Shown here: positions 6,111 through 42,272 of the stretch, in pieces
Numbering within the stretch: the first letter of the stretch is position 1
Layout: every line of letters begins with the position of its first letter
Source of the DNA: an uncultured Gammaproteobacteria bacterium
GTDB lineage: Bacteria > Patescibacteriota > Patescibacteriia > Patescibacteriales > UBA12465
Reading direction: 5' to 3'
DNA: 64,000 nt
NCBI GenBank assembly: GCA_964587195.1
Contig: CAZPKN010000001.1
Location: 341 to 64,340, forward strand
The notes under the pieces: model-generated
Database searches by the model: none
What the model was told of the DNA's origin: nothing
The model's input: only the letters and a program-made list of their open reading frames with translations
Translations under genes and position numbers: made by a program

Positions 6111-6242
6111 ATTTTATAAATAAAAAGTTGAGACAAAACATTATAAATTTATGAAGGCGACGGCGGAGCGTATTTGGAAAGTATAAAGGTTTTGGAAAAG
6201 AGGGTTGGGGGGGGATAAGAATAAATTTTAAATGAATGAGAT

Positions 6243-7643
6243 ATGAAAATAAAAAAAATTGAATTCTATAACCATAAAATACTAGGAGATTTTGCAATAG
6301 ACTTTTCCGTCGATAATGTTATAAAAAATATTTCATTACTGGTGTCGGAAAATGGATGCGGTAAAACAACTTTATTAGAAGAAATTTATAAAATCTTGAC
6401 AGAGAGTTTTGCTGCCTGGGAGAATGGGCCTAATAAAAAAATAACATTTGAATTTACAGAAGATGAAAAAAATAAATTTAGCTTATCAACACACATATTA
6501 ACCATTGAATACGACAAATCAAAGAGTGAAAATAATATGTGGGGCAGATTTTTTGTTTTTGATGAAAACGGCAATGATATTAGTGCTAGCGCTCGTTCAT
6601 TGTTATATAATAATCCTTTAACTAGTGCTTTTAAATGCGCCTTTTCTACTGTTGAGATAAATTTCGAAAAGAGGTCTATAGAATCAATTAAGGCAACCTC
6701 GATTGACTCTGATGAATTTGTCAAAAATAAATCTACAAACAATATAGCAACAGAAATCTCTCAGTTATTAGTAGATATAAAGAATCAAGATAATGCCGAA
6801 AAGGCTAATCTTTTTGATAGTGGGGCCATAAGCACAGAACAACCGTATGCTGGAAAATTTGATCGTTTTAAGGCGGCTTATTCAAAGATGTTTAATGGAA
6901 AAGAATTGAAAGATGTAATTACCGAAAATAATAATTATAAAATTATTTTTAAAGACTTAAAAAAGAATGTTGAATTTGACATATCCGATCTCAGCTCAGG
7001 GGAAAAACAAATTGTTTATAGGGCTGGTTATTTACTTAAAAACTTACGAGGCATTACTAGCGGAGTAGTTCTTATAGATGAGCCTGAATTAAGTTTGCAC
7101 CCCATATGGCAAGAAAAATATCTTCAATTTATCAGAGAAGTATTCCTTTTAGAAAATAAAAATGATATTCAGTTTGTTATAGCGACTCACTCATTTTTAC
7201 TATTAAAAGATGCTCTAAAAGATGGTATCGTGATTAATATTTTCAGAAAAGATAGCCTAGGTCAAATTTCAGTAATAAATGCAAGAGACAAAGGTTTTGG
7301 TTTATTAAAATGGAGTCCTTCGTGGGGGGAAATATGTCATTTTGCATATGGATTACCAACTATTGAGTTTCACAATGATTTATATTCTGCAATTGAGGAT
7401 AAGTTAAAAAATGATCCATCAGATCGAATCGCCCAAGCTGTATTTGAAAAATATATAAAAGATAACGCCCCAAATACTCCAATAATAAAGTGGAAAACTT
7501 CAAGCGGACACCAAAAAGAAGAGACAATAATGACATTTGTAAGAAACAACATTCATCACCCAGATAACATTGAGAGGCCTAAGGCAGAGCCAGATCAATT
7601 AACAAAGTCTATCCACTATATGCTGAAATTAATTACTAGTTAA
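6243..7643 (+). CDS. ABC-type/AAA_21-like ATPase with uncharacterised ~130-aa C-terminal domain
   Basis: Walker A SENGCGKTTLLEEI, ABC signature-like LSSGEKQ, Walker B VVLIDEPELSLHP, H-loop IATHS. Inserted between hsdM and hsdS. Confidence 0.6.
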   Translation: MKIKKIEFYNHKILGDFAIDFSVDNVIKNISLLVSENGCGKTTLLEEIYKILTESFAAWENGPNKKITFEFTEDEKNKFSLSTHILTIEYDKSKSENNMWGRFFVFDENGNDISASARSLLYNNPLTSAFKCAFSTVEINFEKRSIESIKATSIDSDEFVKNKSTNNIATEISQLLVDIKNQDNAEKANLFDSGAISTEQPYAGKFDRFKAAYSKMFNGKELKDVITENNNYKIIFKDLKKNVEFDISDLSSGEKQIVYRAGYLLKNLRGITSGVVLIDEPELSLHPIWQEKYLQFIREVFLLENKNDIQFVIATHSFLLLKDALKDGIVINIFRKDSLGQISVINARDKGFGLLKWSPSWGEICHFAYGLPTIEFHNDLYSAIEDKLKNDPSDRIAQAVFEKYIKDNAPNTPIIKWKTSSGHQKEETIMTFVRNNIHHPDNIERPKAEPDQLTKSIHYMLKLITS

Positions 7644-7662
7644 TTTTTAAAATAAAATTTTT

Positions 7663-8055
7663 ATGGAAATTATTGAACTCATCTTTTCAAATATTAAAAA
7701 TATTTTCTGGTTAATTTTTGCATTAGCACTTTTAATAGTTGCGATTAAAATAACCTTTACTTTTAATATTAATGAATATTTAAAAATTAGGAAAGGCAAC
7801 ATTGATAATAAAATTAGAAATTGCTGTCCACATGCTCATATTTCTATTGTTGACAACAAGGTAATAGCAGAATCTTCTTTTGTTTCTCCCGTCGGCACAA
7901 CTAATTATATTTGCGAAAGATGTCGGTCAGTTATTTATGTCATGGATAAAGAGAGCGAAAAACAAAGAATAGAGAAATTAGTTAAAAATTTTGACGGATA
8001 TATAAAGCAAGAAAAAAAATTTAAAAAACTTTTAAGGAAAGGTGGATATATTTAA
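7663..8055 (+). CDS. small membrane-anchored protein with CxxH...CxxC zinc-ribbon-like motif
   Basis: N-terminal TM helix (IFWLIFALALLIVAI), then CCPHAH...CERCRS. No recognisable family. Confidence 0.4.
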   Translation: MEIIELIFSNIKNIFWLIFALALLIVAIKITFTFNINEYLKIRKGNIDNKIRNCCPHAHISIVDNKVIAESSFVSPVGTTNYICERCRSVIYVMDKESEKQRIEKLVKNFDGYIKQEKKFKKLLRKGGYI

Positions 8056-8085
8056 TATTTATAAGGTAGGGGCAAATGCAATAGT

Positions 8086-9114
8086 TTGATTAATATGAAA
8101 ATTGAATCAACTAACAACGAAGTGGGAATTGAACTTCATTATAGTTTTAACGATATTGATATTCATTCAATAAACTTTTATATTAGGAATTCTTGCTCAT
8201 TAGCTCAAGCGGAAATTATATCTTACCTAATAAATACTTTATACCCGGATGAGCATTTTGAGATTTTAACATTACCTCCGCAAAAAGGGTCTTTTAACGA
8301 TATAACTATCATAAAATTTTTAAACAAAAATCCCGGGATTATTCTTTCAGTTATTTCTTTAATATTGCCCGCATTACTGTATAATAGCCAGCTTAAAGCA
8401 AATGAAACAACAACAGATTATAATATTTTACAAGTTATTGAAAAATGTAAAGATTTAGATTCCAATTTCCCCGATGAAGTTTTGCAAAAAATAAATAGCA
8501 TTTGCGATTCGTATTATCCCAGAAAACAAAAAAATATTTTTTACGAATCTATAATATCCGATAAAAACATAGTTAGCATTGAGCCGAAGATATTTGCAAA
8601 TGATAAGAATGTTTTCAACGCACAAATAAAGCAAGAAGAGTTTGGAGATTATATAGAAGACATTCCAAAAGAAAAAGAGTTCCTAAAAGTTGAAATGACT
8701 GGCAACATACAATTGTCGCAACCTGTTATTGATAGGCAGCAACAATATGGCAGGGGTTTAGCGTGGAGGGGCGTATACTACGGGAATGATATCTCAGATG
8801 AAAACAATAATCTTATTGTTGAGGATGGTGAAAACATATTTTTTTATATGCAGGATGATGAATATAAAAAACAAATATTAAATCAGGAAATATCGTTTAC
8901 TAGTGGTGATAATATAGGTGTTATTTTTGATGTCAGTCGTTACTATGATTATGTAAATGATAAATTTGGCAAACCTAGATTATACGTGAAAAGAGTAGTC
9001 TCTCACAATGACAACCTCGTACAACACAAAAAGGACCTGGCTTTAAAACAAGAATTAAAAAAATTTGAAGAAAAGAATAAAAACCAGTCATCGCTTTTTG
9101 ATATTATAAAGTAA
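8086..9114 (+). CDS. hypothetical protein (342 aa) with one internal hydrophobic segment
   Basis: Long ORF with no recognisable motif. Hydrophobic stretch PGIILSVISLILPALLY. Very AT-rich. Ends 4 nt before the hsdS start. Confidence 0.4.
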   Translation: MINMKIESTNNEVGIELHYSFNDIDIHSINFYIRNSCSLAQAEIISYLINTLYPDEHFEILTLPPQKGSFNDITIIKFLNKNPGIILSVISLILPALLYNSQLKANETTTDYNILQVIEKCKDLDSNFPDEVLQKINSICDSYYPRKQKNIFYESIISDKNIVSIEPKIFANDKNVFNAQIKQEEFGDYIEDIPKEKEFLKVEMTGNIQLSQPVIDRQQQYGRGLAWRGVYYGNDISDENNNLIVEDGENIFFYMQDDEYKKQILNQEISFTSGDNIGVIFDVSRYYDYVNDKFGKPRLYVKRVVSHNDNLVQHKKDLALKQELKKFEEKNKNQSSLFDIIK

Positions 9115-9118
9115 TGCT

Positions 9119-10300
9119 ATGAAAACTAACCAGCCCAAAATCGAAAAGCTAATTTCAGAACTATGCCCGAATGGTGTGGAGTTTTTGGAAATTGATAGTT
9201 TGTGGATTAGGGCACCAAAATCAAAGCTCGGCGTCGCCCAAGTCAAAGAGCTTGGTGATGGTGAAAACATTTGCTTTACTTCTGGTAAAAATATTTTTTA
9301 TGTCGATAAATATCTTGTTGACGGTGAGTATATTTTTATGAATGATGGTGGAAGCGCTGATACAAAATATAATAAAGGTAAGGCGTATTATACGGATCAC
9401 ACTTTTACATTTACATGTGACAAAATAAAAATATTGCCAAAATTTCTTTATTTTTTCTTAAAAGAAAATGAAAAACATATAAATGATGTTTTATTTAAAG
9501 GAACGGGGTTAAAAAATTTAAATAAAAAAGCATTTGCAAACTTTCAAATCCCCATCCCACCCCTTGAAATACAAGAAGAAATCGTAAAAATTCTTGATAA
9601 TTTTACGGAGCTAGAAGCGGAGCTAGAAGCGGAGCTAGAAGCGGAGCTAGAAGCGAGAAAGAAGCAATATGAGCATTATCGCACTAGTCTTTTCCTAAAG
9701 AATAAAAATAATGAAATTAAGACGCTTGGCGAAGTTTGTTGTATTGGTTCTGGCGGGACACCATCAAAATCAAAGAAAGGATATTGGGAAAATGGAGACA
9801 TCCCCTGGATTAAGTCTGAGTCATGTAAAAATGAATCGGTACGTGTAGCAAATAGTTTTATTACAAGTATTGGTCTTAAAAATTCAAGTGCAAAATTATT
9901 AGATAAAAACACAACATTAATTGCTCTTGTCGGAGCTACTATTTTTAAAACTGCGTTTTTAGAGTTTGAGGCTAGTACAAATCAAAACATAGCAAGTATT
10001 AAATCTAATGACCAATCGATGTTGAGTGATAAGTTTATTTTTTATTATTTAACTAGTCTTTATTCAAGCTTAAAGAATAATATGAAAGATTATGGGATGC
10101 TCAACTTAACAACACTTAGGTCTTTCAAAATCCCCGTCCCACCCATCGCTGAACAAGAACGCATCGTTTCAATCCTTGATAAATTCGATGCCCTTGTTAA
10201 TGATATTTCAATCGGTTTACCCGCTGAACTTAAGGCTCGTCGTAAGCAATATGAATATTACCGAAACAAGCTTTTGATGTTTAAAGAATTAACAAAATAG
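9119..10300 (+). CDS. hsdS: type I restriction-modification system specificity subunit
   Basis: Two target-recognition domains, each followed by a conserved helix (IPIPPLEIQEEIVKILD / FKIPVPPIAEQERIVSILD). Central and C-terminal ...RKKQYEHYR / RRKQYEYYR conserved regions. Confidence 0.8.
   Translation: MKTNQPKIEKLISELCPNGVEFLEIDSLWIRAPKSKLGVAQVKELGDGENICFTSGKNIFYVDKYLVDGEYIFMNDGGSADTKYNKGKAYYTDHTFTFTCDKIKILPKFLYFFLKENEKHINDVLFKGTGLKNLNKKAFANFQIPIPPLEIQEEIVKILDNFTELEAELEAELEAELEARKKQYEHYRTSLFLKNKNNEIKTLGEVCCIGSGGTPSKSKKGYWENGDIPWIKSESCKNESVRVANSFITSIGLKNSSAKLLDKNTTLIALVGATIFKTAFLEFEASTNQNIASIKSNDQSMLSDKFIFYYLTSLYSSLKNNMKDYGMLNLTTLRSFKIPVPPIAEQERIVSILDKFDALVNDISIGLPAELKARRKQYEYYRNKLLMFKELTK
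9608..9655 (+). repeat. perfect 12-bp tandem repeat x4 (gagctagaagcg) encoding (ELEA)4 in the central conserved region of hsdS
   Basis: Four identical in-frame units counted directly. The position corresponds to the spacer-length-determining repeats of type I S subunits. Confidence 0.9.
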
Positions 10301-10301
10301 T

Positions 10302-11390
10302 ATGGAAAAGTTTGATTCCATCGAAAATCTTGCTAAAGAAATAAAAAAGAAATTAAAGGTCACTAAGAAAAAGAAGATAGGAGCTCTTTATGCATTTAAT
10401 TCTACCGGAAAAACAAGATTATCAACGATATTAAATGAATCAAATAGAGAAGATGAGGAAAGCGACGGTAAAATAAAAGTTCTTTGTTATAACGCTTTCT
10501 TAGAAGACATGTTTATATGGGACAATGAGAATTATGTTCTTTCTTTTAATACAAATTCATGGATTGTAAAATTAGTAATTGATCAAGGTTTGGATGGAGA
10601 TATTATTGACAATTTCAAAGATATTATAAACTCAAATATCGAGCCCTCATTTGACTTTACTAATGGGGAAATTGCTTTTAATGTAGTTTCAGGAGATGAC
10701 AACAGTAAAAATAATATTAAAATTTCAAAGGGAGAGGAAAGTATTTTCATATGGTCATTTTTTTATACTATCCTAAAATCCGCAATTGAGACTCTAAACA
10801 TTGAGGAGTCAAATAGGCCTACGCCTGTTTTTAATGACCTAGGGCGCATAGTCATTGACGATCCAGTATCCTCTCTAGATGATACCAAGATAATAACAAT
10901 GACAATTAAGCTTGTGGAAACCATAGAATCATTTGAAGGTGACTCTCTATCGTTCTTTATTGCCACGCATCACGCTTTATTCTACAATATTTTAGTTAAT
11001 TCTTTTAAAAGAAATAGTGGTTGTAATTTTAAATCATACAACCTTATAAAAGATAACTATACCTTTCAACTTTTAAAACAAGGGGACACTCCTTTCTCTT
11101 ATCACCTATCAATAAAAAAAATTATTCAGGAAGCTATAATAGGTAATCATATTGAAAGATATCACTTCAATCTTTTTAGAAGCCTACTTGAGAAAACATC
11201 TACCTTCTTGGGATACGACGATTGGAGAAAATGCGTGCCGAGCGGAAGAAAGGCGGAATTTATAAGACTTCTTAATTTGTATAGCCATGGCAAATTATCA
11301 GATATTGAGAGCAGACAGATGTCTGGAGAGGATAAAATTATTTTTGAAGAAACATTCACTAATTTTGTCTCAGATTTTAAATGGGGTTAA
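10302..11390 (+). CDS. PrrC-like anticodon nuclease (ABC-ATPase N-domain + C-terminal ACNase-like domain)
   Basis: Walker A AFNSTGKTRL, signature-like ISKGEES, Walker B/D-loop IVIDDPVSSLDD. C-terminal R-x3-E (FRSLLEK) and downstream YSHGK, as in the PrrC catalytic triad. Sits between hsdS and hsdR, the canonical prrC position. Confidence 0.55.
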   Translation: MEKFDSIENLAKEIKKKLKVTKKKKIGALYAFNSTGKTRLSTILNESNREDEESDGKIKVLCYNAFLEDMFIWDNENYVLSFNTNSWIVKLVIDQGLDGDIIDNFKDIINSNIEPSFDFTNGEIAFNVVSGDDNSKNNIKISKGEESIFIWSFFYTILKSAIETLNIEESNRPTPVFNDLGRIVIDDPVSSLDDTKIITMTIKLVETIESFEGDSLSFFIATHHALFYNILVNSFKRNSGCNFKSYNLIKDNYTFQLLKQGDTPFSYHLSIKKIIQEAIIGNHIERYHFNLFRSLLEKTSTFLGYDDWRKCVPSGRKAEFIRLLNLYSHGKLSDIESRQMSGEDKIIFEETFTNFVSDFKWG

Positions 11391-11435
11391 TAATATACGA
11401 ATATTACCGAAACAAGCTTTTAACTTTTAAAGAAT

Positions 11436-12311
11436 ATGAATCATAAAATTTCCATCCGTTTTTTTAACGACCGAGAAGTTCGGGCTGTTTGGGATGAAAA
11501 AAATAATAAATGGTTATTTAGTGTATTAGATATTATTGCCGTTCTTACAGATCAAAATAATTACACTAAGACCCGTAACTATTGGAAATACCTCAAGGCC
11601 AAGCTTAAGAAAGAAAAAAGTCAGGTGGTTAGTTCTACTACCCAACTGAAAATTTTGGCAAATGATGGAAAACGGTATTTAACCGATATGCTGGACTATG
11701 ACGGTATTATCGCTTTGGGTAAAAATTTCCCCGGAACAAAGGCTAACCGATTTATTAATTGGTTTACTTTTAGCGACGAGGGTATAGACGGGAAAAGCAA
11801 AACCAAGGCTTATGCTTTGTTCGAAAGTTCGCTAATTAACAACATAGAAATAGGGACCACGAAAGGACTAAAGCAGATTCACGCCTACTTATTCGGCGGT
11901 CTTTATAATTTTGCCGGACAAATTAGAAAAAAGAATATTTCTAAAGGCGGTTTTCAGTTTGCTATGGCGCAGTATTTAGAAAACACACTTCAGCAGATTG
12001 AAAAAATGCCGGAGAAAACTTTTGAAGAAATTGTTGATAAATATGTAGAAATGAATATCGCTCATCCATTTATGGAAGGAAATGGCCGAACGACTCGCAT
12101 CTGGCTCGATTTAATTCTTAAAAAACGCTTAAAAAAATGCGTGGACTGGAGCAAGATAAGTAAGAAGGACTACATCGGTGCGATGATACGAAGCCCTAAA
12201 AACAGTCTAAAACTAAAAAATTTACTAAAAAAATCCTTAACTAACAAAATCAACAATCGTGAAATGTTTATGAAAGGAATAGATTATTCATATTATTACG
12301 AAGAGGATTAA
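11436..12311 (+). CDS. Bro-N domain - Fic/Doc family protein
   Basis: N-terminal Bro-N-like segment ([33 protein letters not shown]). Fic motif [12 protein letters not shown]. Confidence 0.7.
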
Positions 12312-12317
12312 AAAACT

Positions 12318-15300
12318 ATGCCAAACCAAGAACACAGCTCCGCTGAAAATTCGGCGGGAAGTTATAATCTAGTCGCTTCAAGTACTCAAAGCACCGTCGT
12401 GGCTGAGTATGTTTCTGATAAAAAAAGAGCGTTTAAGTATCAAAGCGAAGCCGAACTTGAAAAAGCTTTCATTAAGCAGTTAGAAGCCCAGGCTTATGAA
12501 TATTTAAAAATCGCCTCAGAAGATGATTTGCTTTTGAATTTACGAAAACAGCTCGAAAAGCTAAATGATTATAATTTTAGCGATTTAGAATGGAATCGAT
12601 TTTTTAAAGCCGAAATTGCTAACCAAAGCCAGGGTATTGAAGAAAAAACCGCTACCATTCAGGAAGATTATAAAAAAAATCTAATTCTTGATGACGGCTC
12701 AACTAGAAATATTTATCTCATTAAAAAAGACAGTATCCACGATAATAGTTTACAAGTTATTAACCAATATTCAAGCGAAGATGGCGAACGATTAAACCGC
12801 TATGATGTAACGATTTTAGTAAACGGCCTACCGCTTATCCATATCGAGCTAAAAAGACGAGGAGTAGCCATACAAGAAGCATTTAATCAGATAAATAGAT
12901 ACCAAAGAGAAAGCTTTTGGGCCGCTTCCGGTCTGTTTGAATATGTCCAGTTATTTATTATCTCAAACGGAACCCATACTAAATACTATAGCAATACTAC
13001 CAGATCACAGCACATCAAAGAGTCCGGCGAAGGAAAACAGAAAAAGGGCAGGCGGACAAGTAATAGCTTTGAGTTTACGAGCTGGTGGGCAGACGCCGCT
13101 AATCGGCCGATTACCGACTTAATTGATTTTACTAAAACATTTTTCGCCAAGCATGCCGTTTTAAATATTTTAACAAAATATTGCGTCTTTACCTCGGACA
13201 AATTACTGTTAGTAATGCGCCCCTACCAAATCGTCGCCACGGAAAGAATTTTAAATCGCATCGAAATAAGTACAAACTACAAAAAATTCGGAACCGTTGA
13301 GGCGGGCGGCTATGTTTGGCATACGACCGGGTCCGGAAAAACCCTAACTAGTTTTAAAACCGCTCAGCTTGCTAGCAAATTATCTTATGTTGATAAGGTT
13401 TTGTTTGTTGTTGATAGAAAAGATCTCGATTATCAAACCATGCAGGAATATGACAAGTTTGAAAAAGGGGCCGCAAGCAGTAATGTCAGTACCGCTATTT
13501 TAAAAAGACAACTAGAAGACAGTAGCTCAAGAATTATCGTCACAACTATTCAAAAACTCGATCGCTTTATCGCTAAAAACTCCGGACATACCGTTTTTGA
13601 CGGACATATTGTTATTATCTTTGACGAGTGCCACCGCTCACAATTCGGCGAAATGCACGCCGGCATAGTTAAGGCCTTTAAAAAATATCATCTATTCGGT
13701 TTTACCGGAACGCCGATTTTTGCCGCTAACGCTTCAACCGGCGGTCGTCCCGATTTTAAAACAACCGAGCAGGCTTTCGGTTCAAAACTTCATACCTATA
13801 CCATAGTTGACGCTATTTCCGATAAAAATGTTCTACCTTTTAAAGTCGATTATGTTTCAACTGTCCGCGAAGCCGAAGACATTGAAGATAAAAAAGTTAG
13901 CGATATTGATAGAGAGGCCGTTTTAGCCGCCCCGGAAAGACTCGAGAATATCGTTAAATATATTATTGAACATTTCGACCAAAAAACTAAACGAAATAGC
14001 TTTTATAAACTAAAAGAACGGAGGCTAGCCGGTTTTAATTCAATTTTTGCCGTTAGTTCAATTGAAGTTGCTAAAAAATATTATTTAGAATTTAAAAAAC
14101 AATTAGCCGAAGTTCCGAGCGATAAAAAATTAAAAATAGGAACTATTTTTAGTTTCGGGGTTAACGATGAAGACGGAGACGGAATGATGGATGAAAATTC
14201 CGAGGACACTAGCGGGCTTGATACTAGCTCTAGAGATTTTTTAGAAAGCGCTATTTCCGATTATAATGAAATGTTCGGAACATCTTACGATACCTCCTCC
14301 GATAAATTCCAAAATTACTATAAAGATGTCAGCGAAAAAGTAAAGAAAAGAGAGCTTGATGTCTTAATTGTCGTTAATATGTTTTTGACCGGGTTTGATG
14401 CGACTACTCTTAATACCCTTTGGGTTGATAAAAATCTGCGCTCGCACGGACTGCTCCAAGCTTATTCTAGGACTAACCGCATCTTAAACAGCATCAAAAC
14501 TTTCGGTAATATCGTTTGTTTTAGAAATTTAGAAAAAGCGACTAACGAAGCGATTGCCCTATTCGGCGATAAAGAAGCGGGCGGGATTGTTTTGCTTAGA
14601 TCTTATCAAGACTATTACCACGGCTATAAAGATGGCGATAAAGAATTTCGAGGTTATGTTAGCTTAGTCGACGAGCTAATGGCAAAATTCCCGGTCGGGA
14701 TAAGAATTGATAGCGAGCAAGCGCAAAAAGAATTCATTAATCTCTACGGCGGAATTTTAAGACTAAGAAACATTTTAACAACTTTCGACGAGTTTATCGG
14801 CGATGAAATATTTACCCAATACGATATTCAGGACTATCATAGCATGTACATTGATTTGTATAATGAACTTCGCAAAGTTAAAGAGAGCGAGAAAGAAAAT
14901 ATTAATGATGATATTGTTTTCGAAATGGAACTTATTAAACAAGTTGATATCAATATTGATTATATTTTAAGTCTTATTAAAATCTACCATGAAGATAATA
15001 CAAAAAATAAAGACAGCTTGATGGATATTAATAAAGCGATTGACGCGAGCGTTGAGCTTAGAAATAAAAAAGATTTAATTAACCAGTTTATCAGCTCGCT
15101 TGATATTAATTCAAAGATTGATGAAGATTGGCGGAAATTTGTTGCTGAAAAAAAGATTGAAGAACTGGAAAAAATTATCGCTAACGAAAATTTAGACAAA
15201 GAAGCGACTTATGCGCTTATTGATAACGCCTTTAAAGACGGCTATGTCCCGACTACTGGAACGACTATTACCAAAATTTTACCACCCGTATCAAGATTTT

Positions 15301-15392
15301 CTCCCGACGGAAAAATGACTATTAAGCGCGAAACTGTTCTTAGAAAACTAGCTAGCTTCTTCGACAGATTCTTTGATATTTCTGAGAGGTAG
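12318..15392 (+). CDS. hsdR: type I restriction-modification system restriction subunit (SF2 helicase/endonuclease)
   Basis: 1024 aa. HsdR N-terminal nuclease region, helicase motif I TGSGKT, DEAD-box-like IIFDECHRSQFG, motif VI-like QAYSRTNR. Confidence 0.9.
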   Translation: MPNQEHSSAENSAGSYNLVASSTQSTVVAEYVSDKKRAFKYQSEAELEKAFIKQLEAQAYEYLKIASEDDLLLNLRKQLEKLNDYNFSDLEWNRFFKAEIANQSQGIEEKTATIQEDYKKNLILDDGSTRNIYLIKKDSIHDNSLQVINQYSSEDGERLNRYDVTILVNGLPLIHIELKRRGVAIQEAFNQINRYQRESFWAASGLFEYVQLFIISNGTHTKYYSNTTRSQHIKESGEGKQKKGRRTSNSFEFTSWWADAANRPITDLIDFTKTFFAKHAVLNILTKYCVFTSDKLLLVMRPYQIVATERILNRIEISTNYKKFGTVEAGGYVWHTTGSGKTLTSFKTAQLASKLSYVDKVLFVVDRKDLDYQTMQEYDKFEKGAASSNVSTAILKRQLEDSSSRIIVTTIQKLDRFIAKNSGHTVFDGHIVIIFDECHRSQFGEMHAGIVKAFKKYHLFGFTGTPIFAANASTGGRPDFKTTEQAFGSKLHTYTIVDAISDKNVLPFKVDYVSTVREAEDIEDKKVSDIDREAVLAAPERLENIVKYIIEHFDQKTKRNSFYKLKERRLAGFNSIFAVSSIEVAKKYYLEFKKQLAEVPSDKKLKIGTIFSFGVNDEDGDGMMDENSEDTSGLDTSSRDFLESAISDYNEMFGTSYDTSSDKFQNYYKDVSEKVKKRELDVLIVVNMFLTGFDATTLNTLWVDKNLRSHGLLQAYSRTNRILNSIKTFGNIVCFRNLEKATNEAIALFGDKEAGGIVLLRSYQDYYHGYKDGDKEFRGYVSLVDELMAKFPVGIRIDSEQAQKEFINLYGGILRLRNILTTFDEFIGDEIFTQYDIQDYHSMYIDLYNELRKVKESEKENINDDIVFEMELIKQVDINIDYILSLIKIYHEDNTKNKDSLMDINKAIDASVELRNKKDLINQFISSLDINSKIDEDWRKFVAEKKIEELEKIIANENLDKEATYALIDNAFKDGYVPTTGTTITKILPPVSRFSPDGKMTIKRETVLRKLASFFDRFFDISER

Positions 15393-15467
15393 ATATATTT
15401 TGAGATAATTAATTTTAAATTATACCTTTGAAAATGACCATCAGTCAGCGTTAAATAAAAAATAATT

Positions 15468-15881
15468 ATGAATGGCTTTCAATATAAAAAAGATTATAAT
15501 TTTTTCTTAAATAAGTTAGCTAAAGGCGATAAAATTTTATTTGCTAAAAAATATCTGAAGTTATTTGATTTTAGAGATCCTAGTATAAAAAGAAAGGAAT
15601 TTAATAAAATTAGGAATAAATTATATAAAAAATTAGTTTTAAAATTTGGCGAACAATGTCAGTTAAAAATTCACCCTGATTGTTTCAAGGAGAAATCTTT
15701 TGATGTTGATCATTTCATTCCTCTCTCAACAAATAAGCTAAATAAGGAACTCAGAAATATAAAAGCAGCAAAAGGGAGAAAGGTTGCGAGTCAAAGTTTT
15801 GGGTCGAATGACATTGCTAATCTAAAAATAGCTTGTAAGAAATGTAATAGCTATAAAAAACATAAACTTTTGTTTAAATAA
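15468..15881 (+). CDS. HNH endonuclease
   Basis: CQLKIHPDC...DVDHFIPLS...IACKKCNSYKKH: two Cys pairs with a His-containing core, typical of HNH. Confidence 0.6.
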   Translation: MNGFQYKKDYNFFLNKLAKGDKILFAKKYLKLFDFRDPSIKRKEFNKIRNKLYKKLVLKFGEQCQLKIHPDCFKEKSFDVDHFIPLSTNKLNKELRNIKAAKGRKVASQSFGSNDIANLKIACKKCNSYKKHKLLFK

Positions 15882-16022
15882 TTAACGACAAAAAGAACTT
15901 AAACACCCCCGACCTAATCAATAAAATTATCACTGAAGTAGAAAGAACGTATAAAAGATATTAAAATTATAATAAATGCAAAAATAAGATAAAATCTACT
16001 TGAATACTATCAATCATCCCCC

Positions 16023-17519
16023 ATGCCACACATAAGCAAAACACAATACCTTGAATACCTCGCCTGCCCTAAGAACGCCTGGCTTAAACAACATAAGCCG
16101 GAGTTGGCTGGCTCTTTTGAGTTATCAGCTTTTGAAAAAAGTTTAGTCGCTAATGGAAATTTAGTTGAAGAGTGGGCCAGAAAACTTTTTCCAAGCGGCG
16201 TTTTAATAGAATCATCTGGCAAAACAGCCGCCTTAGAAACTATTAAATATTTAGAGGTTAAACAGTCGGCTATTTTTCAAGCTACTTTTATCACCGATAA
16301 ATTTCTAGCGCGAGCCGATGTTTTAGAATATGATAGTGAAACCGACTCTTGGAATCTCTATGAAATAAAAGGTACTAATTCCTTGAAAGAAAAAACCGAT
16401 GACAGAGATCATATTGATGATGCCGCTTTCCAATATATAACCCTTGGCGACTGCGGCCTAAAAATTGGAACTATAAATATTATCCACCTCAACAAAGACT
16501 ATATCCGGGGCGATGAAATAAACGTTCAAGAATTATTTGCGATTGATGATATCACTGATAAGATTCTCGAGCGAGAAGAGGCCACTAGAGAAAAAATGTC
16601 GGAAGCCGCTCAGGCTCTTTTTCAAAAAGACGAACGGGCAGTTAATTGCAATTGCATTTACAAAGGACGGAGCAATCATTGCTCAACTTTTAGCTATGCT
16701 CATCCTGAAGTCCCTGAATATGCTATTCATGATTTATACCGCATCGGCCTGAGCCCAAAAAAATTAGCCTCCCTGGTTGATGACAATATTTTTGATCTTG
16801 CCGACGTTCCCTCCGACTTTAAATTATCAGAAGCTCAGCAGAATCAAATTAACGTCTATAAAAGCCAAATGCCGATGATAGATTTAATATCTATTAAAGC
16901 CGAGCTTGAAGCGCTAAAATACCCGCTCTATTTCTTTGATTACGAAACATACCCACCGGCCATTCCCCTTTTTAAAGGCTTTAAACCCTATCAGCATATC
17001 CCCTTTCAATTTTCTCTACACGTCCTAAGCAGCCCGGACAGCGAGCCTGAGCATTACGGATATCTTCATATAGATAATACTAATCCGACCGCAGACATTA
17101 TTAATGCCCTACAAAAATATATCGGCCCCGAGGGAAGTATTATTGTCTGGTATAAGCCGTTTGAACAAACCAGAAATTTGGAATTAGCGCTTTTAAGTCC
17201 TGACAATAGTGAGTTTTTAGCGGATATCAACAACCGCATCTACGATTTAATGGATATCTTTTCCAAACAGCTATACGTCCACCCAAAATTTAAAGGGAGC
17301 ACTTCGATTAAAAAAGTATTACCAGTTTTAGTTCCATCTCTTAATTACCAAGAGTTAGAGATAAAAGAAGGGGGATCGGCCATGGAAGCTTGGTTTGAAA
17401 AAATATTTAATGCCAGTTCAGAAGCAGAGAAAGAAGAAACTGCTAAAAATCTTCTAAAATATTGCGAACTAGACACCTATGCCATGTACGCTATTTGGAA
17501 GGAATTGATGAAAATATAG
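16023..17519 (+). CDS. DUF2779-family protein (RecB/Cas4-like PD-(D/E)xK nuclease N-domain plus C-terminal domain)
   Basis: N-terminus ISKTQYLEYLACPKNAWL matches the DUF2779 'SKSxYxxxxxCPKxxWL' signature. D...EIK motif (ADVLEYDSETDSWNLYEIKG). Confidence 0.55.
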   Translation: MPHISKTQYLEYLACPKNAWLKQHKPELAGSFELSAFEKSLVANGNLVEEWARKLFPSGVLIESSGKTAALETIKYLEVKQSAIFQATFITDKFLARADVLEYDSETDSWNLYEIKGTNSLKEKTDDRDHIDDAAFQYITLGDCGLKIGTINIIHLNKDYIRGDEINVQELFAIDDITDKILEREEATREKMSEAAQALFQKDERAVNCNCIYKGRSNHCSTFSYAHPEVPEYAIHDLYRIGLSPKKLASLVDDNIFDLADVPSDFKLSEAQQNQINVYKSQMPMIDLISIKAELEALKYPLYFFDYETYPPAIPLFKGFKPYQHIPFQFSLHVLSSPDSEPEHYGYLHIDNTNPTADIINALQKYIGPEGSIIVWYKPFEQTRNLELALLSPDNSEFLADINNRIYDLMDIFSKQLYVHPKFKGSTSIKKVLPVLVPSLNYQELEIKEGGSAMEAWFEKIFNASSEAEKEETAKNLLKYCELDTYAMYAIWKELMKI

Positions 17520-17647
17520 AGAAATTGATAAGTTTGTGGATACTAGAACCGTCACTTGATTTTTATAAAGATACATATTATAATAATCCGTTACCTTAGT
17601 TCATTAACTTCAAAAAAAACAATGCCTTCAAAGGAGGGGGGATATAT

Positions 17648-18148
17648 ATGGAAACAAATAATATTAAACTTTTTAGCGGAGAATTCTTCCTCCCTGTCGA
17701 TTATGATGAAGACTTTGACGACTTGCTCGAAAAAGGAAACTACGACCACGTTTCAGATGACATCAATGAAGAAAATTTTCAATCAGTTGTACAAGCCGAA
17801 CAAAGCGGGAACATTATTCAAGTTGCAAGGTTTATAGGGAGTAGAAAAGGAGGAATTTGCGATCTTATAGGTTTCCCATACAGACAAGCGACTTTAAGAG
17901 AGTTCGCGTCTTATGCATTAATCAAGCCTTCCGGGCCATTATTTGGGGTAGCCTATGGTTCAGTCTATAAAATAGCCCCGGGTAAAATGGAAGTTCCTTA
18001 TTTTAGCGATGAAAATGGCCGAAGGCGATTACATGGTATTTTGTCAGAATTAGATTATGAAAAAGAGCCGTACGGTAGATTGCTAGTTATCAGGATGTGT
18101 TTCGATTTAAACGAATATTACCGATCTCAAATTGAATTCTTTAGCTAG
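17648..18148 (+). CDS. hypothetical protein
   Basis: 166-aa ORF followed by a terminator. No family recognised. Confidence 0.35.
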   Translation: METNNIKLFSGEFFLPVDYDEDFDDLLEKGNYDHVSDDINEENFQSVVQAEQSGNIIQVARFIGSRKGGICDLIGFPYRQATLREFASYALIKPSGPLFGVAYGSVYKIAPGKMEVPYFSDENGRRRLHGILSELDYEKEPYGRLLVIRMCFDLNEYYRSQIEFFS

Positions 18149-18164
18149 AAGCCCCTCTTCAAAA

Positions 18165-18205
18165 GTCCCCGTTTCATTTATGAAGTGGGGATTTTCTTTT
18201 TTATG
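18165..18205 (+). terminator. rho-independent terminator
   Basis: gtccccgtttcatttatgaagtgggga hairpin followed by a T-tract. Confidence 0.55.
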
Positions 18206-18220
18206 CTATAATCCATATAT

Positions 18221-18955
18221 ATGAAACTAATATCATTAAATGCCTGGGGTGGACAGGTTCCGGAAATAATAGACTTTTTTAAAAAATACCAAGACGTTGA
18301 TATTTTTTTATTACAAGAAGTTTTTAATGATGGGACTGAAAGAACGGTTTTTCATGAAAACGAAAAAACTCAATTATTTAAAGAGTTGGATGAAAAGCTC
18401 CCCAGCCATCAAGGCTATTTTGCCCCCTCAGTTTTTCAAGAGTGGGGATTAGCCATTTTTATTAAAAAATCTATTTCTATTTTAACAAGCGGGGATCATT
18501 TTGTTTATTTACATAGAGAATCCTTACGTGGCCAAGAATTCAAAACCGTCGGTCGAAACTTACAATTTATAAACATTATCCATAATGGTAAAAATTTAAA
18601 TATTATTAACTTTCACGGACTTCATACTGGAGAAGGCAAGGATGATTGTCCTGAAAGAATAGACCAGTCAAAAAAAATAATTGATTTTATAAAAAAACTA
18701 GAAGGAGAAATAATTCTAGCTGGCGATTTTAATCTCAAGCCAGACACGGAAAGCTTAATAATGATTGAAAAAGGGCTTAAATTAAAAAATCTTATAAAAG
18801 ACTACGAGATAAAATCAACACGCACTTCATATTATAGTAAACCGGAAAAATTCGCCGATTATATTCTATGCTCAGAGGGAGTAAAGGTTGAAGAATTCTC
18901 TACTCTACCTGAGGAGGTATCCGATCATAAAGCGCTGTTGATGAAATTTATATAA
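18221..18955 (+). CDS. endonuclease/exonuclease/phosphatase (EEP) family protein
   Basis: N-terminus LISLNAWGG...DIFLLQEV and C-terminal SDHKAL motif, typical of the EEP fold. Confidence 0.6.
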   Translation: MKLISLNAWGGQVPEIIDFFKKYQDVDIFLLQEVFNDGTERTVFHENEKTQLFKELDEKLPSHQGYFAPSVFQEWGLAIFIKKSISILTSGDHFVYLHRESLRGQEFKTVGRNLQFINIIHNGKNLNIINFHGLHTGEGKDDCPERIDQSKKIIDFIKKLEGEIILAGDFNLKPDTESLIMIEKGLKLKNLIKDYEIKSTRTSYYSKPEKFADYILCSEGVKVEEFSTLPEEVSDHKALLMKFI

Positions 18956-21732: not shown

Positions 21733-21768
21733 AAAAACACCTCTTTATTGCAAGAGGTGTTTTTATTT
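21733..21768 (+). terminator. rho-independent terminator after rpsD
   Basis: aaaaacacctctttattgcaagaggtgtttttat. Confidence 0.65.
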
Positions 21769-21826
21769 CACGCTGACGCTCAAATTAATTAATGTTTATT
21801 GTGTAAAAAAATAGAAAGAAAAACTG

Positions 21827-22534
21827 CTAATTATTTTCCTCTTTTTCCACTTCTTGAATCACTGCCTTAGAAGATTTATAAAAACCAAGCACTAAGAATA
21901 TTACCAAGCTACCAATAATAATTCCTGACACATTAAGACCGTAAACAGCCAGAGCATCTTTAAAGACATCAGGCTCACGACTAGCCAAAGCTAACCCCAT
22001 GGCTGCCAATGGTGGCATTAAGGTTACAGTAATGGCAACCCCAGAAAGAGATCCTGTTAGGTCTTTTTTTGCCCAAGTAAAACTAGCCGCCGCTCCAGCC
22101 GCCACCGGAATTAAAAAGGTGCTCCAACTAAAATTTGCCATTAAAGTTACTACACCTAAATCTGATAAACTGAAATCTATTCCTAGCCCAATTACAGCCG
22201 CAACAACTAAGGTCACGAAAGCTGACACAATAAAAACGAACACCGAACGACTAATAACTTTGAAATTTAAAATAGTAATTCCTAAAGAAATTGATAAAAT
22301 CGGAGACAGAAGAGGCGCAACCAACATCCCTCCTATTAACAAGACTAAATTATCTTTAACTAAGCCAATTACAACAATAAAGGTAGCTAACACTAGGAGA
22401 AGATAGAACCCTGAGCTAGGCGCTGAAGAACTAATGATGGATGATGAAAAATCTTCCCTCTCCTCCCTGGTTGTTTTTAAAGAATACTTCTGCAGTCCAT
22501 TTTGAGACTTAAAAATTCTTGAAAAGATATTCAT
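21827..22534 (-). CDS. DUF389-family membrane protein
   Basis: Polytopic membrane protein with LIGGMLVAPLLSPI motif characteristic of DUF389/TIGR00341. Confidence 0.5.
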   Translation of the reverse strand: MNIFSRIFKSQNGLQKYSLKTTREEREDFSSSIISSSAPSSGFYLLLVLATFIVVIGLVKDNLVLLIGGMLVAPLLSPILSISLGITILNFKVISRSVFVFIVSAFVTLVVAAVIGLGIDFSLSDLGVVTLMANFSWSTFLIPVAAGAAASFTWAKKDLTGSLSGVAITVTLMPPLAAMGLALASREPDVFKDALAVYGLNVSGIIIGSLVIFLVLGFYKSSKAVIQEVEKEENN

Positions 22535-22756
22535 AAAAATGTTTATTACATTGTTATAGTTTAATAGTATATGAAAAATAGCCCATACTCAAGGCTATTT
22601 AAAACTTAACAATTTTTCTTTCCTCCGCTCGCCCGCTTCGTTGGAGCTTAGCGAGGCGAGCCGGCTGCTAATTTGAATCATCTATTCATATAAACCCGAC
22701 CACAGGGGTCGGGCTTATTTTTGGCGGAGGGGAATCAACGGTATTAGAAATAAAAA

Positions 22757-23887
22757 TTAATTGAAACAATTAAAATATTCCCAGAGAATGAAAACTCGGT
22801 TTCTCGAAAATCCTGTTTTTTCCTTTAATATATCTATATTCATTAATTCTTTGGTTAAAGCATTGGCCGTAGGAGTGGTTATTTTTAAAGCTTTCTCAAT
22901 ATCTTTAGTATCAACAACCGGATCAGTAAATAAATACATTAATAAATCTTTAGCTAATTTACTTCTTTTTCCCATTTTTTCAATAATGGCACATTCGTAT
23001 TTTTGTCTTAGCTTAATTATTTTTTCAAAAGTATTAATACCGTCTTTCGATGTAGTAATAACACCTGCTAGGAAAAATTTTATCCATTGTTCTATTTCGT
23101 TTGATTTTCGGACCATGGTTAAAGAGTCGTAATATGAAGCTCTGTTTTTTTCAAAAAAATGAGAGAGATATAAAGTTGGCTTTTTTAGTATTCCCAAGCT
23201 AACTAAATGAAGAGTTATTAAAAGTCTGCCAATTCTTCCGTTTCCATCTAAGAACGGGTGTATGGTTTCAAATTGATAATGACTTAAAGCTATCTTGATT
23301 AAATTTGGAATATCTAAATTTTCATTATGCCAAAATTTTTCAAGATCACTTAATAAATCCATTACCTGTGAGTCATGCGGAGGAATAAAAAAAGCGTCTG
23401 ACAAGCTAGATCCCCCAATCCAATTTTGGCTCTTTCTTATTTCTCCTGTTTTTTTGTGTTTGCCTCTGGTGTTGGATAGAAGAATTTTGTGGGTATTTTT
23501 TACAAGCCGCATCGACAGAGGGAGTTGCTTTAATTCGGCTATGGCGGAATTAATCGCCTTTACATAATTTTGAACTTCTTGCCAGTCATCTCTTTTTTCG
23601 GGATCAATGTCTTCTTCGGAAAGCAGAGCTTCATCCATTTCAGTTTTTGTGCCTTCAATTTTACTGGATAAAACAGCTTCTTTATACACATGCATTTGAA
23701 TAAAAAAATCCACATCAGGCACTAAAAAAGAATAGGCGTTGAGTTCGCCTAAATATCTAGTGGCTTCCTCTAAAAGCATATTTATTTTTTTATCTTCCCA
23801 AACAAAATCTTTGTTTATAGGGTTAGGGAGGAAGCTTTTATATTGATATTGTTGTTCAAAAACACCTGCTTTAAAATTATTATTCAT
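22757..23887 (-). CDS. Fic family protein, class II (N-terminal inhibitory motif SxxxEG present)
   Basis: Fic motif [15 protein letters not shown]. Upstream SSKIEGT fits the [ST]xxxE[GN] autoinhibitory helix. Flanked by tRNA-Asp-linked repeat modules. Confidence 0.75.
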
Positions 23888-24006
23888 AGCTTTAACTATA
23901 TTATTTTATAATTAAAGTTTAGCACTTAACTTTAATTAAGTCAAAACATAATAAAAGTTGAAAAAAGTAAAACAAAAAATCATCTAACATTAGATAATTT
24001 TTTTGA

Positions 24007-24310
24007 TGGCGGAATGGACGGGACTCACTACCCGGTCCTCCCGGTCCGCCCAGGGCGGACATCGCTCAGACTTTCTCGTCCCGACGCGAGCCAAACTATT
24101 GGCTCACTTCCATTCCGTATTCAAAAATAAACCCGACCACAAGGGTCGGGCTTATTTTTGGCGGAATGGACGGGACTCACTACCCGGTCCTCCCGGTCCG
24201 CCCAGGGCGGACATCGCTCAGACTTTCTCGTCCCGACGCGAGCCAAACTATTGGCTCACTTCCATTCCGTATTCAAAAATAAACCCGACCACAAGGGTCG
24301 GGCTTATTTT
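24007..24310 (-). repeat. tandem direct repeat, 2 x 152 bp; each unit has 20 nt of the tRNA-Asp 3' end, ~95 bp GC-rich sequence and a copy of the tRNA terminator hairpin
   Basis: Units 24007-24158 and 24159-24310 are essentially identical. tggcggaatggacgggactc equals the tRNA-Asp 3' end. Hairpin aaacccgaccacaagggtcgggcttattttt is repeated, and a diverged third copy is at ~22690-22745. Confidence 0.85.
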
Positions 24311-24387
24311 TGGCGGAATGGACGGGACTCGAACCCGCGACCTCCTGCGTGACAGGCAGGCGTTCTAACCAACTGAACTACCACTCC
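24311..24387 (-). tRNA. tRNA-Asp (anticodon GTC), CCA encoded
   Basis: Reverse complement GGAGTGGTAGTTCAGTTGGTTAGAACGCCTGCCTGTCACGCAGGAGGTCGCGGGTTCGAGTCCCGTCCATTCCGCCA. Near-identical architecture to E. coli tRNA-Asp. Confidence 0.85.
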
Positions 24388-24549
24388 AAAACAACAGGAA
24401 AATCATAGCAAAAAGTTTTCAGCTTGTCAAAGTTTTTACGGCTCCTAAAATAGCCGAAACCCCTAGAAAAACTTGCCAAAATAGGAATAATAGTATATAC
24501 TTTAATTACAAAAACTACGAGCTTTCTAGTTTTTTTAATTTACACTCAT

Positions 24550-28205: not shown

Positions 28206-28473
28206 TTTGTTATGGGTGGGCGCACAAGCCTGCCTGCCGGCAGGCAGGGATTTCCGCCCTCGCTTTTCGCCGGAAATGCGAAAAGCTCACTTGTCCAGAC
28301 CGGCCGCTAAACGCTCGCCAACTCGCGTTTATCGTCGCTCCCCTTTTCGCTCGAGCCCTGCCTGCCGGCAGGCAGGTTCCGCTCTCGCTCAAGACTCGCT
28401 CGCCGCTAGTTCGACTACTATGCCGTTCCGGCATTAAACAAAAAAGAAGCCATTGGCTTCTTTTTTGTTTATG
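28206..28473 (-). repeat. tRNA-Val-linked GC-rich module with two copies of the 20-bp palindrome CCTGCCTGCCGGCAGGCAGG (28229-28248, 28357-28376) and a 12-nt copy of the tRNA-Val 3' end (28217-28228)
   Basis: tgggcgcacaag at 28217 equals the tRNA-Val 3' end at 28474. Region is about 60% GC in an AT-rich genome. Homologous to the modules at tRNA-Gly and tRNA-Ala. ORF-track ORFs here are artefacts. Confidence 0.6.
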
Positions 28474-36072: not shown

Positions 36073-36753
36073 ATGAGAAAAAAAATCTTTGCTTTTAGCC
36101 TTTGTTTAATTATCTTTTTAGCAGTTCTAATCATCCCGACCATATCAAGCGCCCAAAGCTCAATCATTGCTTCTTCTAGCGAAAAATATGAATACGGGCA
36201 ATACGGCCTTAATGACATGTTAAGTATAGCGACTTGGGCGGCCAAATGGATACTGGGAATAGTCGGCTCGCTAACTCTTTTAATGTTTGTCTATGGCGGC
36301 TTTATCTTATTAACTTCGGCTGGTAGTAATGAAAAGGTCGGAGAAGCAAAAAAAATAATTACCGCGGCGGTAATCGGTTTAATTATTGTTTTCAGTAGCG
36401 CCATGATAATTAGGTTTGTTTCTACTTCGCTCGGATTAAGTTGGTCCGGAGAAAAATTAGAAACGGCCTCTAGCCAAAATACAGGAGGAGTAATAAAAGC
36501 AACTGACTCAACTTGCGCAAATTATAAATTATCTAGCGGAGAAACAGCGGGATCATCAGGATTTAGTTGCGTTGAATCAAGCAGTGCTGGCTATTGTCTT
36601 AACGGGCTCTGCCCAAGTTATGGCAGCAGCATAAAATGCTGCGCGCCAAAATGTGAGACCAAGCATCCTGGATGGACATGTACTACCGATACCGACGGAA
36701 AAACTTGTGTCGATTATCTATGTAAAGGGGCGGGGAAATGTTGCAAAAAATAA
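36073..36753 (+). CDS. TrbC/VirB2-like pilin-family protein with Cys-rich C-terminal extension
   Basis: Signal peptide, then a conserved two-helix core (GSLTLLMFVYGGFILLTSAGSNEKVGEAKKIITAAVIGLIIVF) shared with the 40.5-43.1 kb paralogs. C-terminal ~90 aa contain about 16 Cys. Confidence 0.5.
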   Translation: MRKKIFAFSLCLIIFLAVLIIPTISSAQSSIIASSSEKYEYGQYGLNDMLSIATWAAKWILGIVGSLTLLMFVYGGFILLTSAGSNEKVGEAKKIITAAVIGLIIVFSSAMIIRFVSTSLGLSWSGEKLETASSQNTGGVIKATDSTCANYKLSSGETAGSSGFSCVESSSAGYCLNGLCPSYGSSIKCCAPKCETKHPGWTCTTDTDGKTCVDYLCKGAGKCCKK

Positions 36754-40910: not shown

Positions 40911-41013
40911 CTCTACAAAATAAGTAGTCCTCATTATCTAATGGGGATTGCTATTTTGGGCTCTAAACAACTTTACTTATTTTGAGCCCAAAGTAGTGAT
41001 TAATCTTATTTTT

Positions 41014-41433: not shown

Positions 41434-41441
41434 CAAAAACA

Positions 41442-41876: not shown

Positions 41877-41883
41877 ATAATAT

Positions 41884-42267: not shown

Positions 42268-42272
42268 ATATT

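Follow-up and report, generated by a model that had tools for sequence, protein, structure and literature searches.

A SoFic-type Fic cassette and tRNA-matched GC-rich modules in a small islet at the tRNA-Asp gene of a Patescibacteria genome

Islands at tRNA genes are a known kind of structure, and the closest described counterparts of the islet analyzed here, which lies at the tRNA-Asp gene of a Patescibacteria genome and carries a Fic gene, are the cis-mobilizable elements (CIMEs; defined in PMC5704250). We studied this islet in a 64-kb stretch of contig CAZPKN010000001.1 (hereafter the window, whose numbering is used unless another locus is named). As in CIMEs, insertion is at a tRNA 3′ end, there are tandem units, putatively bounded by tRNA-3′ repeats, the att-like ends come without an integrase, and relatives show an empty site. 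The islet differs from CIMEs in its very small units, which are either single-gene, ~1.3 kb long and equipped with their own promoter, or gene-less and 152–236 bp long, in its host, and in that neither an integrase nor a parental integrative and conjugative or integrative and mobilizable element (ICE or IME) is seen near it. As for the repeats by which CIMEs are recognized, the gene-less units, here called modules, have exact 20-nt repeats, the Fic cassette has only 7 exact nt (TCCGCCA) together with a degenerate tRNA-like end, and the islet as a whole shows no recognizable distal copy. The cargo is of the SoFic type, SoFic being a single-gene abortive-infection system that is reported to defend against phages via AMPylation and to be accompanied in some hosts by a small downstream antitoxin (PMC12249575).

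A second counterpart is found in Prochlorococcus, in the islands shaped by tycheposons, where successive integrations beside few tRNA genes push older units outward (bioRxiv 10.1101/2020.12.28.424599). These islands share with the islet the scattered partial tRNAs and decayed remnants and an adaptive or defensive cargo, but a tycheposon brings along a tyrosine or serine recombinase, and in many cases genes for replication, whereas the Fic cassette and the modules carry neither. With no integrase of its own encoded in 21769–24310, the islet is not an autonomous integrative element, be it a prophage, an ICE, an IME or a tycheposon.

Integron arrays, finally, resemble an array that we found in a related genome (L006; L-numbers denote the assemblies or loci compared with the window) in combining one gene with one short repeat and in holding small, recombinase-less cassettes of defense or toxin type, and the Fic cassette behaves like one unit of this integron-like array. 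In contrast to integrons, however, the 25–27-nt ends are non-palindromic and lack the RYYYAAC/GTTRRRY cores, so that there is no attC, the cassettes have their own promoters and terminators, and the repeat imitates a tRNA from T-loop to 3′ end; no intI was found among the open reading frames (ORFs) scanned, and attI is absent. What is new is a single-gene, recombinase-less cassette with tRNA-mimicking ends, its recurrent coupling to tRNA-matched modules, and the Patescibacteria setting. We know of no description of such arrays in Patescibacteria in the literature. We consider it probable, with moderate confidence, that the islet arose by serial insertion at the tRNA-Asp 3′ end and that its Fic unit is an integrase-less, att-flanked cassette in a tandem-accretion array.

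The islet at tRNA-Asp

The window has a GC content of ~36%, and the closest named relatives of its Fic protein are Candidatus Magasanikbacteria. In tRNA orientation, the locus is composed as follows:

24311–24387, minus strand: tRNA-Asp(GTC) gene (ARAGORN; Rfam, 72 bits)
24159–24310, minus strand: module 1, made of a hairpin, GAATAC, a GC-rich body, a T-arm-like hairpin and a tRNA-3′ copy
24007–24158, minus strand: module 2, 98% identical to module 1
22729–24006, minus strand: SoFic-type Fic cassette, ~1.28 kb
22757–23887, minus strand: Fic ORF, 376 aa
22722–22728, minus strand: TCCGCCA, direct repeat of 24007–24013, right cassette junction and putative crossover core
22690–22721, minus strand: third copy of the module terminator (repeat comparison; terminator scan)
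22626–22664, minus strand: GC-rich hairpin (GCTCGCC...GGCGAGC), cgctcgcccgcttcgttggagcttagcgaggcgagccgg (sequence)
21827–22534, minus strand: DUF389 membrane protein gene (Pfam)
21733–21768, minus strand: ancestral bidirectional terminator common to tRNA-Asp and rpsD, the distal boundary of the islet

The tRNA-Asp gene has a strong promoter (TTGACA-17-TATGAT, 24402–24430). Modules 1 and 2 are tandem 152-nt units, and repeats of this length at 98% identity cannot be due to chance. Each ends in the exact 20-mer GAGTCCCGTCCATTCCGCCA (24159–24178 and 24007–24026), of which the tRNA-Asp gene has its own copy at 24311–24330, and the copy in module 2 forms the left junction of the Fic cassette. Each also has one hairpin AAAATAAGCCCGACCCTTGTGGTCGGGTTTAT (24279–24310 and 24127–24158), which is terminator-like on both strands in the terminator scan. 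Only Fic and DUF389 are encoded in 21769–24310, and no recombinase of the islet's own is present.

Syntenic relatives were found via the DksA-like neighbor gene; a scan of GTDB species representatives with RpsD was useless as an empty-site test, the nearest protein being 62% identical and lacking both synteny and a nearby tRNA-Asp. In L091 (DksA 91% identical) and L094 (79%) the site is empty, with tRNA-Asp directly adjoining the terminator that it shares with the convergent rpsD gene. Aligned with L091, the extra DNA of the window runs from 24304–24310 down to 21769, and homology resumes at 21768; the islet begins at the last base of tRNA-Asp (24311), i.e., at the 3′ end of the tRNA gene. A sigma-70 operon occupies the same site in L092 and in L093 (DksA 80% identical; 83-kb contig); apart from this site, L093 is collinear with the window for tens of kilobases. 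In a close relative, L090 (1–440), tRNA-Asp has a foreign, non-pairing 3′ end and is followed by tRNA-Lys, tRNA-Glu, tRNA-Val and a second tRNA-Asp; this replaced 3′ end and the tRNA array are the mark of another, tRNA-array-carrying element integrated in the same tRNA-Asp gene. The DUF389 gene is not at the tRNA-Asp site in any of these five relatives (L090–L094). The stretch 21769–24310 (2.54 kb), DUF389 included, is thus a strain-specific insertion at tRNA-Asp, and the empty site together with the different cargo among relatives makes this site a hot spot. The tRNA-Asp gene of the window and all its copies end in CCGCCA, while its counterparts in relatives have CCGCA or CCGCCC there, which suggests that the present 3′ end arrived with an element.

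An earlier note on this DNA, made from its letters alone, had described the order tRNA-Asp, two modules, minus-strand Fic gene and third terminator, and all these features lie where it had placed them. Its proposal of an island integrated at tRNA-Asp, to be checked by an empty site in related genomes, is borne out by L091 and L094. The extent that it gave has to be enlarged to 21769–24310, with DUF389.

The Fic cassette and its junctions

In Pfam, the 376-aa protein matches Fic_N (E = 2.7e-25) and Fic (E = 2.3e-18). It contains the core motif HxFx(D/E)GNGRxxR and, ~120 residues N-terminal to the core in the same chain, SSKIEG, which fits the inhibitory motif (S/T)xxxE(G/N); these two features define it as a class II Fic protein, a kind that is inhibited by a helix of the same chain. 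The PADLOC SoFic profile (PDLC03963) is matched with E = 5.7e-119 and 395.7 bits over positions 5–358 of 361, and the best matches in the PDB are SoFic structures (E ~1e-31). Like SoFic systems, the window protein thus combines a full-length profile match with an N-terminal SxxxEG helix, an HPFxDGNGRxxR core and a C-terminal winged helix. Its score against the NCBIfam equivalog is 177 bits, below the cut-off of 550, which makes it a member of the SoFic family rather than a strict equivalog, and the cassette has no room for a small AS1-like antitoxin ORF downstream of the gene. Judged by these matches, the gene would serve abortive-infection defense in its host. Homologues at 66–69% identity occur across several phyla, which points to a wide horizontal spread.

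The gene lies in a discrete cassette. This starts with an insulating, bidirectional hairpin (23974–24004), followed by a promoter (TTGACT-17-TAAACT, 23916–23944). A palindrome, TAATTAAAGTT-N7-AACTTTAATTA (~23909–23938), overlaps this sigma-70 promoter and is conserved in L008, where the changes in it are symmetric; it probably serves as operator, bound by the C-terminal winged helix of Fic. At the other side lies the motif TAATACCGTTGATTCCCC (22729–22746), and the cassette finishes in its own conserved 25-nt tRNA-3′-like end (...GATACCGTTGATTCCCC-TCCGCCA), which the distal "cccctccgcca" adjoins.

At least seven further contexts contain the same cassette. When five loci are aligned with MAFFT, homology starts just after "...CCGCCA" and ends ~50 nt beyond the stop codon, within GATACCGTTGATT...CCG. 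The left junctions read ccgcca|tcaaaaa (window and L003), ccgcca|atataaa (L004), ccgcta|ctaaaaa (L006), ctccaca|cttgatc (L008), ctccgca|tcaaaca (L221) and ctccgca|tagcggg (L222), so that wherever the upstream flank is present the cassette starts exactly after a tRNA-type "...CCGC(C)A" end. The exception is L132, in which the cassette 3′ end directly adjoins the hairpin that elsewhere precedes Fic, the layout to be expected of an uninterrupted att region or of a neighboring cassette of the same family. On the right side, L008 and L222 have in common the cassette 3′ end ...CACACACCGC(C)A, immediately beyond which the sequences diverge. Flanking repeats are TCCGCCA in the window (24007–24013 and 22722–22728) and CTCCCCGCTA in L006.

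Since Fic orthologues of 77–96% identity occur in unrelated neighborhoods within sharply conserved boundaries, the comparison supports the view of the gene as mobile cargo, as the earlier note had assumed, and an orthologous Fic gene is not found at the same place in all relatives. The link that the note drew between the repeat family and Fic also holds: the order tRNA, module with tRNA-3′ copy, Fic recurs in four genomes and at two kinds of tRNA gene, namely in the window and L221 at tRNA-Asp, and in L222 and L008 at tRNA-Ser(TGA), in the last with one cassette between. Of 49 loci with more distant Fic homologues, three have a tRNA on the same strand 100–220 nt upstream, compared with ~0.5% expected by a rough estimate. 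Three points of the note have to be corrected. The modules, which it had taken for the att ends of the Fic element, are gene-less units in their own right, and each has a tRNA-3′ copy of its own as boundary. Of the decayed module that it saw at the distal side, the terminator part stands (the third copy, taken with the following GAATA, agrees with modules 1 and 2 in 38 of the 39 positions aligned, with a single gap of 2 nt), but the GC-rich remnant does not significantly resemble the body of the Asp module (local alignment score 17 versus 14.1 ± 2.4 for shuffles, 74 of 500 shuffles being at least as good); this hairpin shares only a 12-mer with the tRNA-Ala module and is in the style of the module family. 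A gene called toxin-like is, in view of the PADLOC match, better described as a SoFic-type abortive-infection defense gene.

Comparable ends recur in arrays. In L006 (3247–12389) and L007, the 27-nt repeat GTTCCAACATCGTCCCACCCTCYCCGC occurs nine times within 9.1 kb, each copy lying 10–20 nt past a stop codon and, except for the one at 4318, preceding a hairpin. The last 16 nt of this repeat equal the 3′ end of tRNA-Ser(TGA) in L008, and its copies separate single or double genes (Bro-N, NUDIX, KilA-N, RhuM-Fic, SoFic-type Fic, RhuM and peptidase S51). The L006 array as a whole comprises about ten small defense-type cassettes downstream of tRNA-Ser(GGA), one repeat after each. The same type of repeat follows a two-gene cassette in L008, and in L004 ATACGRKTGATAACTCYCCG occurs three times, with a hairpin after every copy, and two of the copies flank Fic; the 235-aa neighbor of Fic in L004 was considered as an orthologue of DUF389 and rejected.

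GC-rich modules behind tRNA genes

Modules are found at five of the eight tRNA genes of the window (Ser-CGA, Asp, Val, Gly and Ala), where the last 13–20 nt of the tRNA itself are repeated within 164–288 nt downstream, with GC-rich sequence between. Besides the Asp modules, these are:

3915–4095: module after tRNA-Ser(CGA)
28219–28460: module after tRNA-Val
49727–50181: modules after tRNA-Gly, two 236-nt units, 100% identical
57064–57333: module after tRNA-Ala

Behind tRNA-Val, tRNA-Gly and tRNA-Ala the modules stand alone, and behind tRNA-Ser another variable region comes after the module. The syntenic relative L093 has none of these modules; others were found in L008/L009, L221 and L222, with a half unit in L092. 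Relative to the tRNA, the modules have 66 10-mers in common in the same orientation versus 9 in the opposite one, and by this measure they appear to be one oriented family. The Asp module body (~90 nt, 61% GC) begins with CGGAATGGA, an inverted copy of the acceptor 3′ strand of the tRNA. The palindrome CCTGCCTGCCGGYAGGCRGG is common to the Val, Gly and Ala modules, and the Ala module holds a piece of the tRNA-Val 3′ end.

A rival explanation is that the modules are not att scars at all but structured non-coding elements that trail tRNA genes, either tRNA-sense RNAs or structured DNA sites, with sequences matched to their own tRNA; the Fic cassette would then simply share their preference for tRNA 3′ flanks or land on the tRNA copy. 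We regard this as a real possibility without being the likely one. It draws on the oriented 10-mers and on the presence of modules after five of eight window tRNAs and in at least four other assemblies. The 21-nt hairpin GAGCCAATAGTTTGGCTCGCG is identical in the window Asp and L222 Ser(CGA) modules and shows compensatory changes in L092, three modules compared with shuffles gave folding z-scores of −4.1 to −4.3, and in 6 of 6 modules it is the tRNA-sense strand that folds more stably than the antisense strand. The window Gly and L221 Asp modules have a common body, in which GCCAACCCYGGACAAGT and GAGCGCGGAA immediately precede the tRNA copy, while their 5′ inverted segment differs exactly as the T-arms of the two tRNAs do (GGGAATCGGAC versus GGGACTCGAAC). 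At three of the eight window tRNAs (Asp, Gly and Ala), and also in L221 and L222, 9–12 nt of the cognate tRNA recur as an exact inverted copy 28–64 nt farther downstream, compared with ~0.01 per tRNA expected by chance on a rough estimate. In L222, moreover, the module follows tRNA-Ser(CGA) with no terminator between them.

Several results speak against this explanation. Rfam, both at the gathering threshold and at E ≤ 5, finds only the eight window tRNAs and gives chance-level matches for the modules, and ARAGORN (80% thresholds, introns, tmRNA mode) makes no credible tRNA or tmRNA call in them. No promoter is evident inside the tandem units. An acceptor-like closing stem, which we had considered for every module, exceeds shuffles only in the Asp (P = 0.04) and Ala (P = 0.02) modules. 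The modules are also very rare in public data: a spurious ORF of the Asp module retrieved only itself among 5.8 billion proteins, and one of the Gly module retrieved a single 84-aa match among 1.8 billion, which indicates that modules are rare or rarely assembled.

Two further ideas fared poorly. Their bodies are not mosaics of tRNA fragments, the matches being 8–10 nt long and at chance level except for the inverted cognate piece and the tRNA-Val piece of the Ala module. A search of IMG/VR with the palindrome CTGCCTGCCGGCAGGCAG, two module hairpin motifs and the 27-nt repeat of L006 gave matches almost only in high-GC phage contigs, or none; such matches look unrelated, and a viral origin is not indicated.

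The modules, potentially the most novel component of the locus, may be gene-less mini integrative elements, landing pads or RNAs. A bolder proposal, which we hold to be doubtful, is that the modules and the 25–29-nt tRNA-3′-like cassette ends together form an undescribed cassette-capture system of Patescibacteria, or that the modules act in their own right, as RNAs that mimic tRNAs. Under such capture, gene-less structured elements would settle behind tRNAs, the same type of body being re-targeted to different tRNAs, and each module would have an inverted T-arm or acceptor copy at its start and a direct tRNA-3′ copy at its finish. The direct copy would act as a sacrificial landing site on which defense cassettes lacking a recombinase, for example SoFic, toxin-antitoxin and Bro-N cassettes, accumulate while the tRNA stays undamaged.

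Copies of tRNA 5′ ends (GGAGCGGTAGTT and GGAGAGGTGGCCGAGTGGTTT) lie just upstream of tRNA-Asp and tRNA-Ser in L221 (9560–9640) and L222 (9570–9670), followed by GC-rich hairpins (TCCGCCAAAGGCGGA and CCCGCCAAAGGCGGG), and module-like elements may thus also occur on the 5′ side of tRNAs.

Origin and meaning of the islet

If the islet was built by serial insertion, its layers would be, outward from the tRNA, the two modules, the 1.28-kb SoFic-type cassette, the terminator copy with the GC hairpin, and DUF389. The cassette would have entered by conservative site-specific recombination between its att-like end, carried on a circular intermediate, and a chromosomal tRNA-3′ sequence, which would be the copy in module 2 or, before the modules arrived, tRNA-Asp itself. 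The predicted circle junction, ...GATTCCCC-TCCGCCA-TCAAAAAAATT... (CCGTTGATTCCCC-TCCGCCA-TCAAAAAAATTATC), would join 22729–22746 to 24006. The observed junctions fit attL and attR products, attL consisting of the resident gagtcccgtccat, TCCGCCA and the cassette hairpin, and attR of the cassette's ...ccgttgattcccc, TCCGCCA and the resident terminator. The third terminator copy is resident sequence downstream of the insertion point, as is expected if the cassette entered a tRNA-3′ copy followed by a terminator. Catalysis would fall to a tyrosine integrase with specificity for the T-loop or 3′ end of tRNAs, encoded elsewhere and acting in trans, and the cassette would be either cis-mobilizable, in the manner of a CIME, or cargo only.

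Classical tRNA-targeting tyrosine integrases exist in the lineage: L093 (12146–13689) has at tRNA-Val a decayed element with a 121-aa PF00589 fragment, flanked by a 27-nt attL/attR repeat of the tRNA-Val T-arm and 3′ end. The same element contains GAATACGATTGATAAC, a motif of Fic cassette 3′ ends.

A number of observations weigh against serial insertion of an att-flanked cassette. The Fic cassette encodes no recombinase, no integrase or recombinase was found in the 64-kb window (tblastn with the L093 fragment; Pfam on ten of ~70 ORFs), and the 10 kb past the window end hold housekeeping genes and a 16S rRNA gene, with no recombinase found. The comparisons thus establish that the site is polymorphic for presence and absence, that the cassette has discrete boundaries in many contexts with junctions at tRNA-type ends, and that the cargo is SoFic; mobilization in trans, with its enzyme and circular intermediate, is inferred, as are the sequence in which the layers arrived and defense activity in this host. 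Fic is flanked by an exact repeat of no more than 7 nt, with a degenerate tRNA-like piece at the distal side, the 3′ end motif is missing from L221 and the 5′ hairpin from L132, and no recognizable distal copy of tRNA-Asp was found for the islet as a whole. The GC content of the Fic gene is 31.7%, compared with an ORF mean of 37.6 ± 4.3 (z = −1.35), and we rejected an anomalous composition. Part of the variability beside tRNAs is, finally, due to deletion: L093 is without the variable region behind tRNA-Ser(CGA) yet keeps ~70 nt of its last gene, a remnant which indicates that a deletion occurred there.

Some of these points would fit a recombination hot spot without any dedicated mobility of cassettes, in which homologous or illegitimate recombination, following the uptake of DNA, adds or removes the Fic unit and its neighbors. 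The substrates would be the terminators present in several copies and the tRNA-like pieces that older integrative elements left behind, and the boundaries would simply be those of an expression unit, from promoter to 3′ UTR. The lack of a recombinase in the window scans, the 7-nt flanking repeat and the deletion at the tRNA-Ser site of L093 all favor this explanation, as do the three near-identical terminators and three identical 20-mers, which are substrates for unequal crossing-over, and the tandem modules, whose 98–100% identity resembles its products. We nevertheless consider it unlikely, because homologous recombination does not predict base-precise, sequence-specific junctions. In seven independent contexts, with three different tRNA sequences, the left boundary coincides exactly with the final base of a tRNA-type end, the right boundary common to L008 and L222 ends in ...CCGC(C)A, and L006 has nine near-identical 27-nt repeats, one per cassette.

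A repeat mis-join in a low-coverage metagenome, be it of the tandem modules or of the module-to-Fic junction, is very improbable: the ENA contig coverage is ~7x, many contigs of close relatives break near tRNA-Asp and L002 itself begins inside module 2, but three assemblies are 100% identical, namely the window, L001 over the whole array and L002, from a different sequencing run, over the module-to-Fic junction, and the order tRNA, module, Fic recurs in three other genomes from other studies.

The region behind tRNA-Ser(CGA) (3915–18955) is a second tRNA-linked variable region of the window, and it contains:

4340–4519: excisionase-like helix-turn-helix ORF
4533–6110, 9119–10300 and 12318–15392: type I restriction-modification genes hsdM, hsdS and hsdR, respectively
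11436–12311: Bro-N and Fic protein, matching PADLOC PDC-S04

Genes for AAA ATPases, HNH, DUF2779 and endonuclease/exonuclease/phosphatase proteins are found there as well. Downstream of tRNA-Ser(CGA) in Magasanikbacteria CG10, L008 (12549–17052) holds inovirus-like genes (Zot, rolling-circle Rep and a 556-aa protein), possibly an integrated filamentous phage. Elsewhere in the window, seven paralogous small secreted or membrane proteins, six of them in tandem, are encoded in 36073–36753 and 40515–43123; they have in common the motif W(M/L)TAAGNE-KV--AK...IGL(I/V)IV and look like a family of pilin-like genes. An 80-nt intergenic repeat, 89% identical, occupies 43790–43869 and 58045–58124.

Patescibacteria have tiny genomes, and their gene exchange and phage defense are poorly understood. 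The locus offers a concrete route for both, by which minimal, self-expressed defense cassettes without a recombinase of their own would stack where tRNA 3′ ends have been copied. Should the cassette ends and the modules indeed be recombination substrates, they would make up a compact gene-capture platform that is integron-like in use and built on tRNA mimicry, and such a platform would mark where new defense genes could be sought in Patescibacteria. The modules, on account of which assemblies of these organisms break at tRNA genes, are structured, oriented, tRNA-matched and lineage-restricted, and may represent a new kind of small mobile or RNA element.

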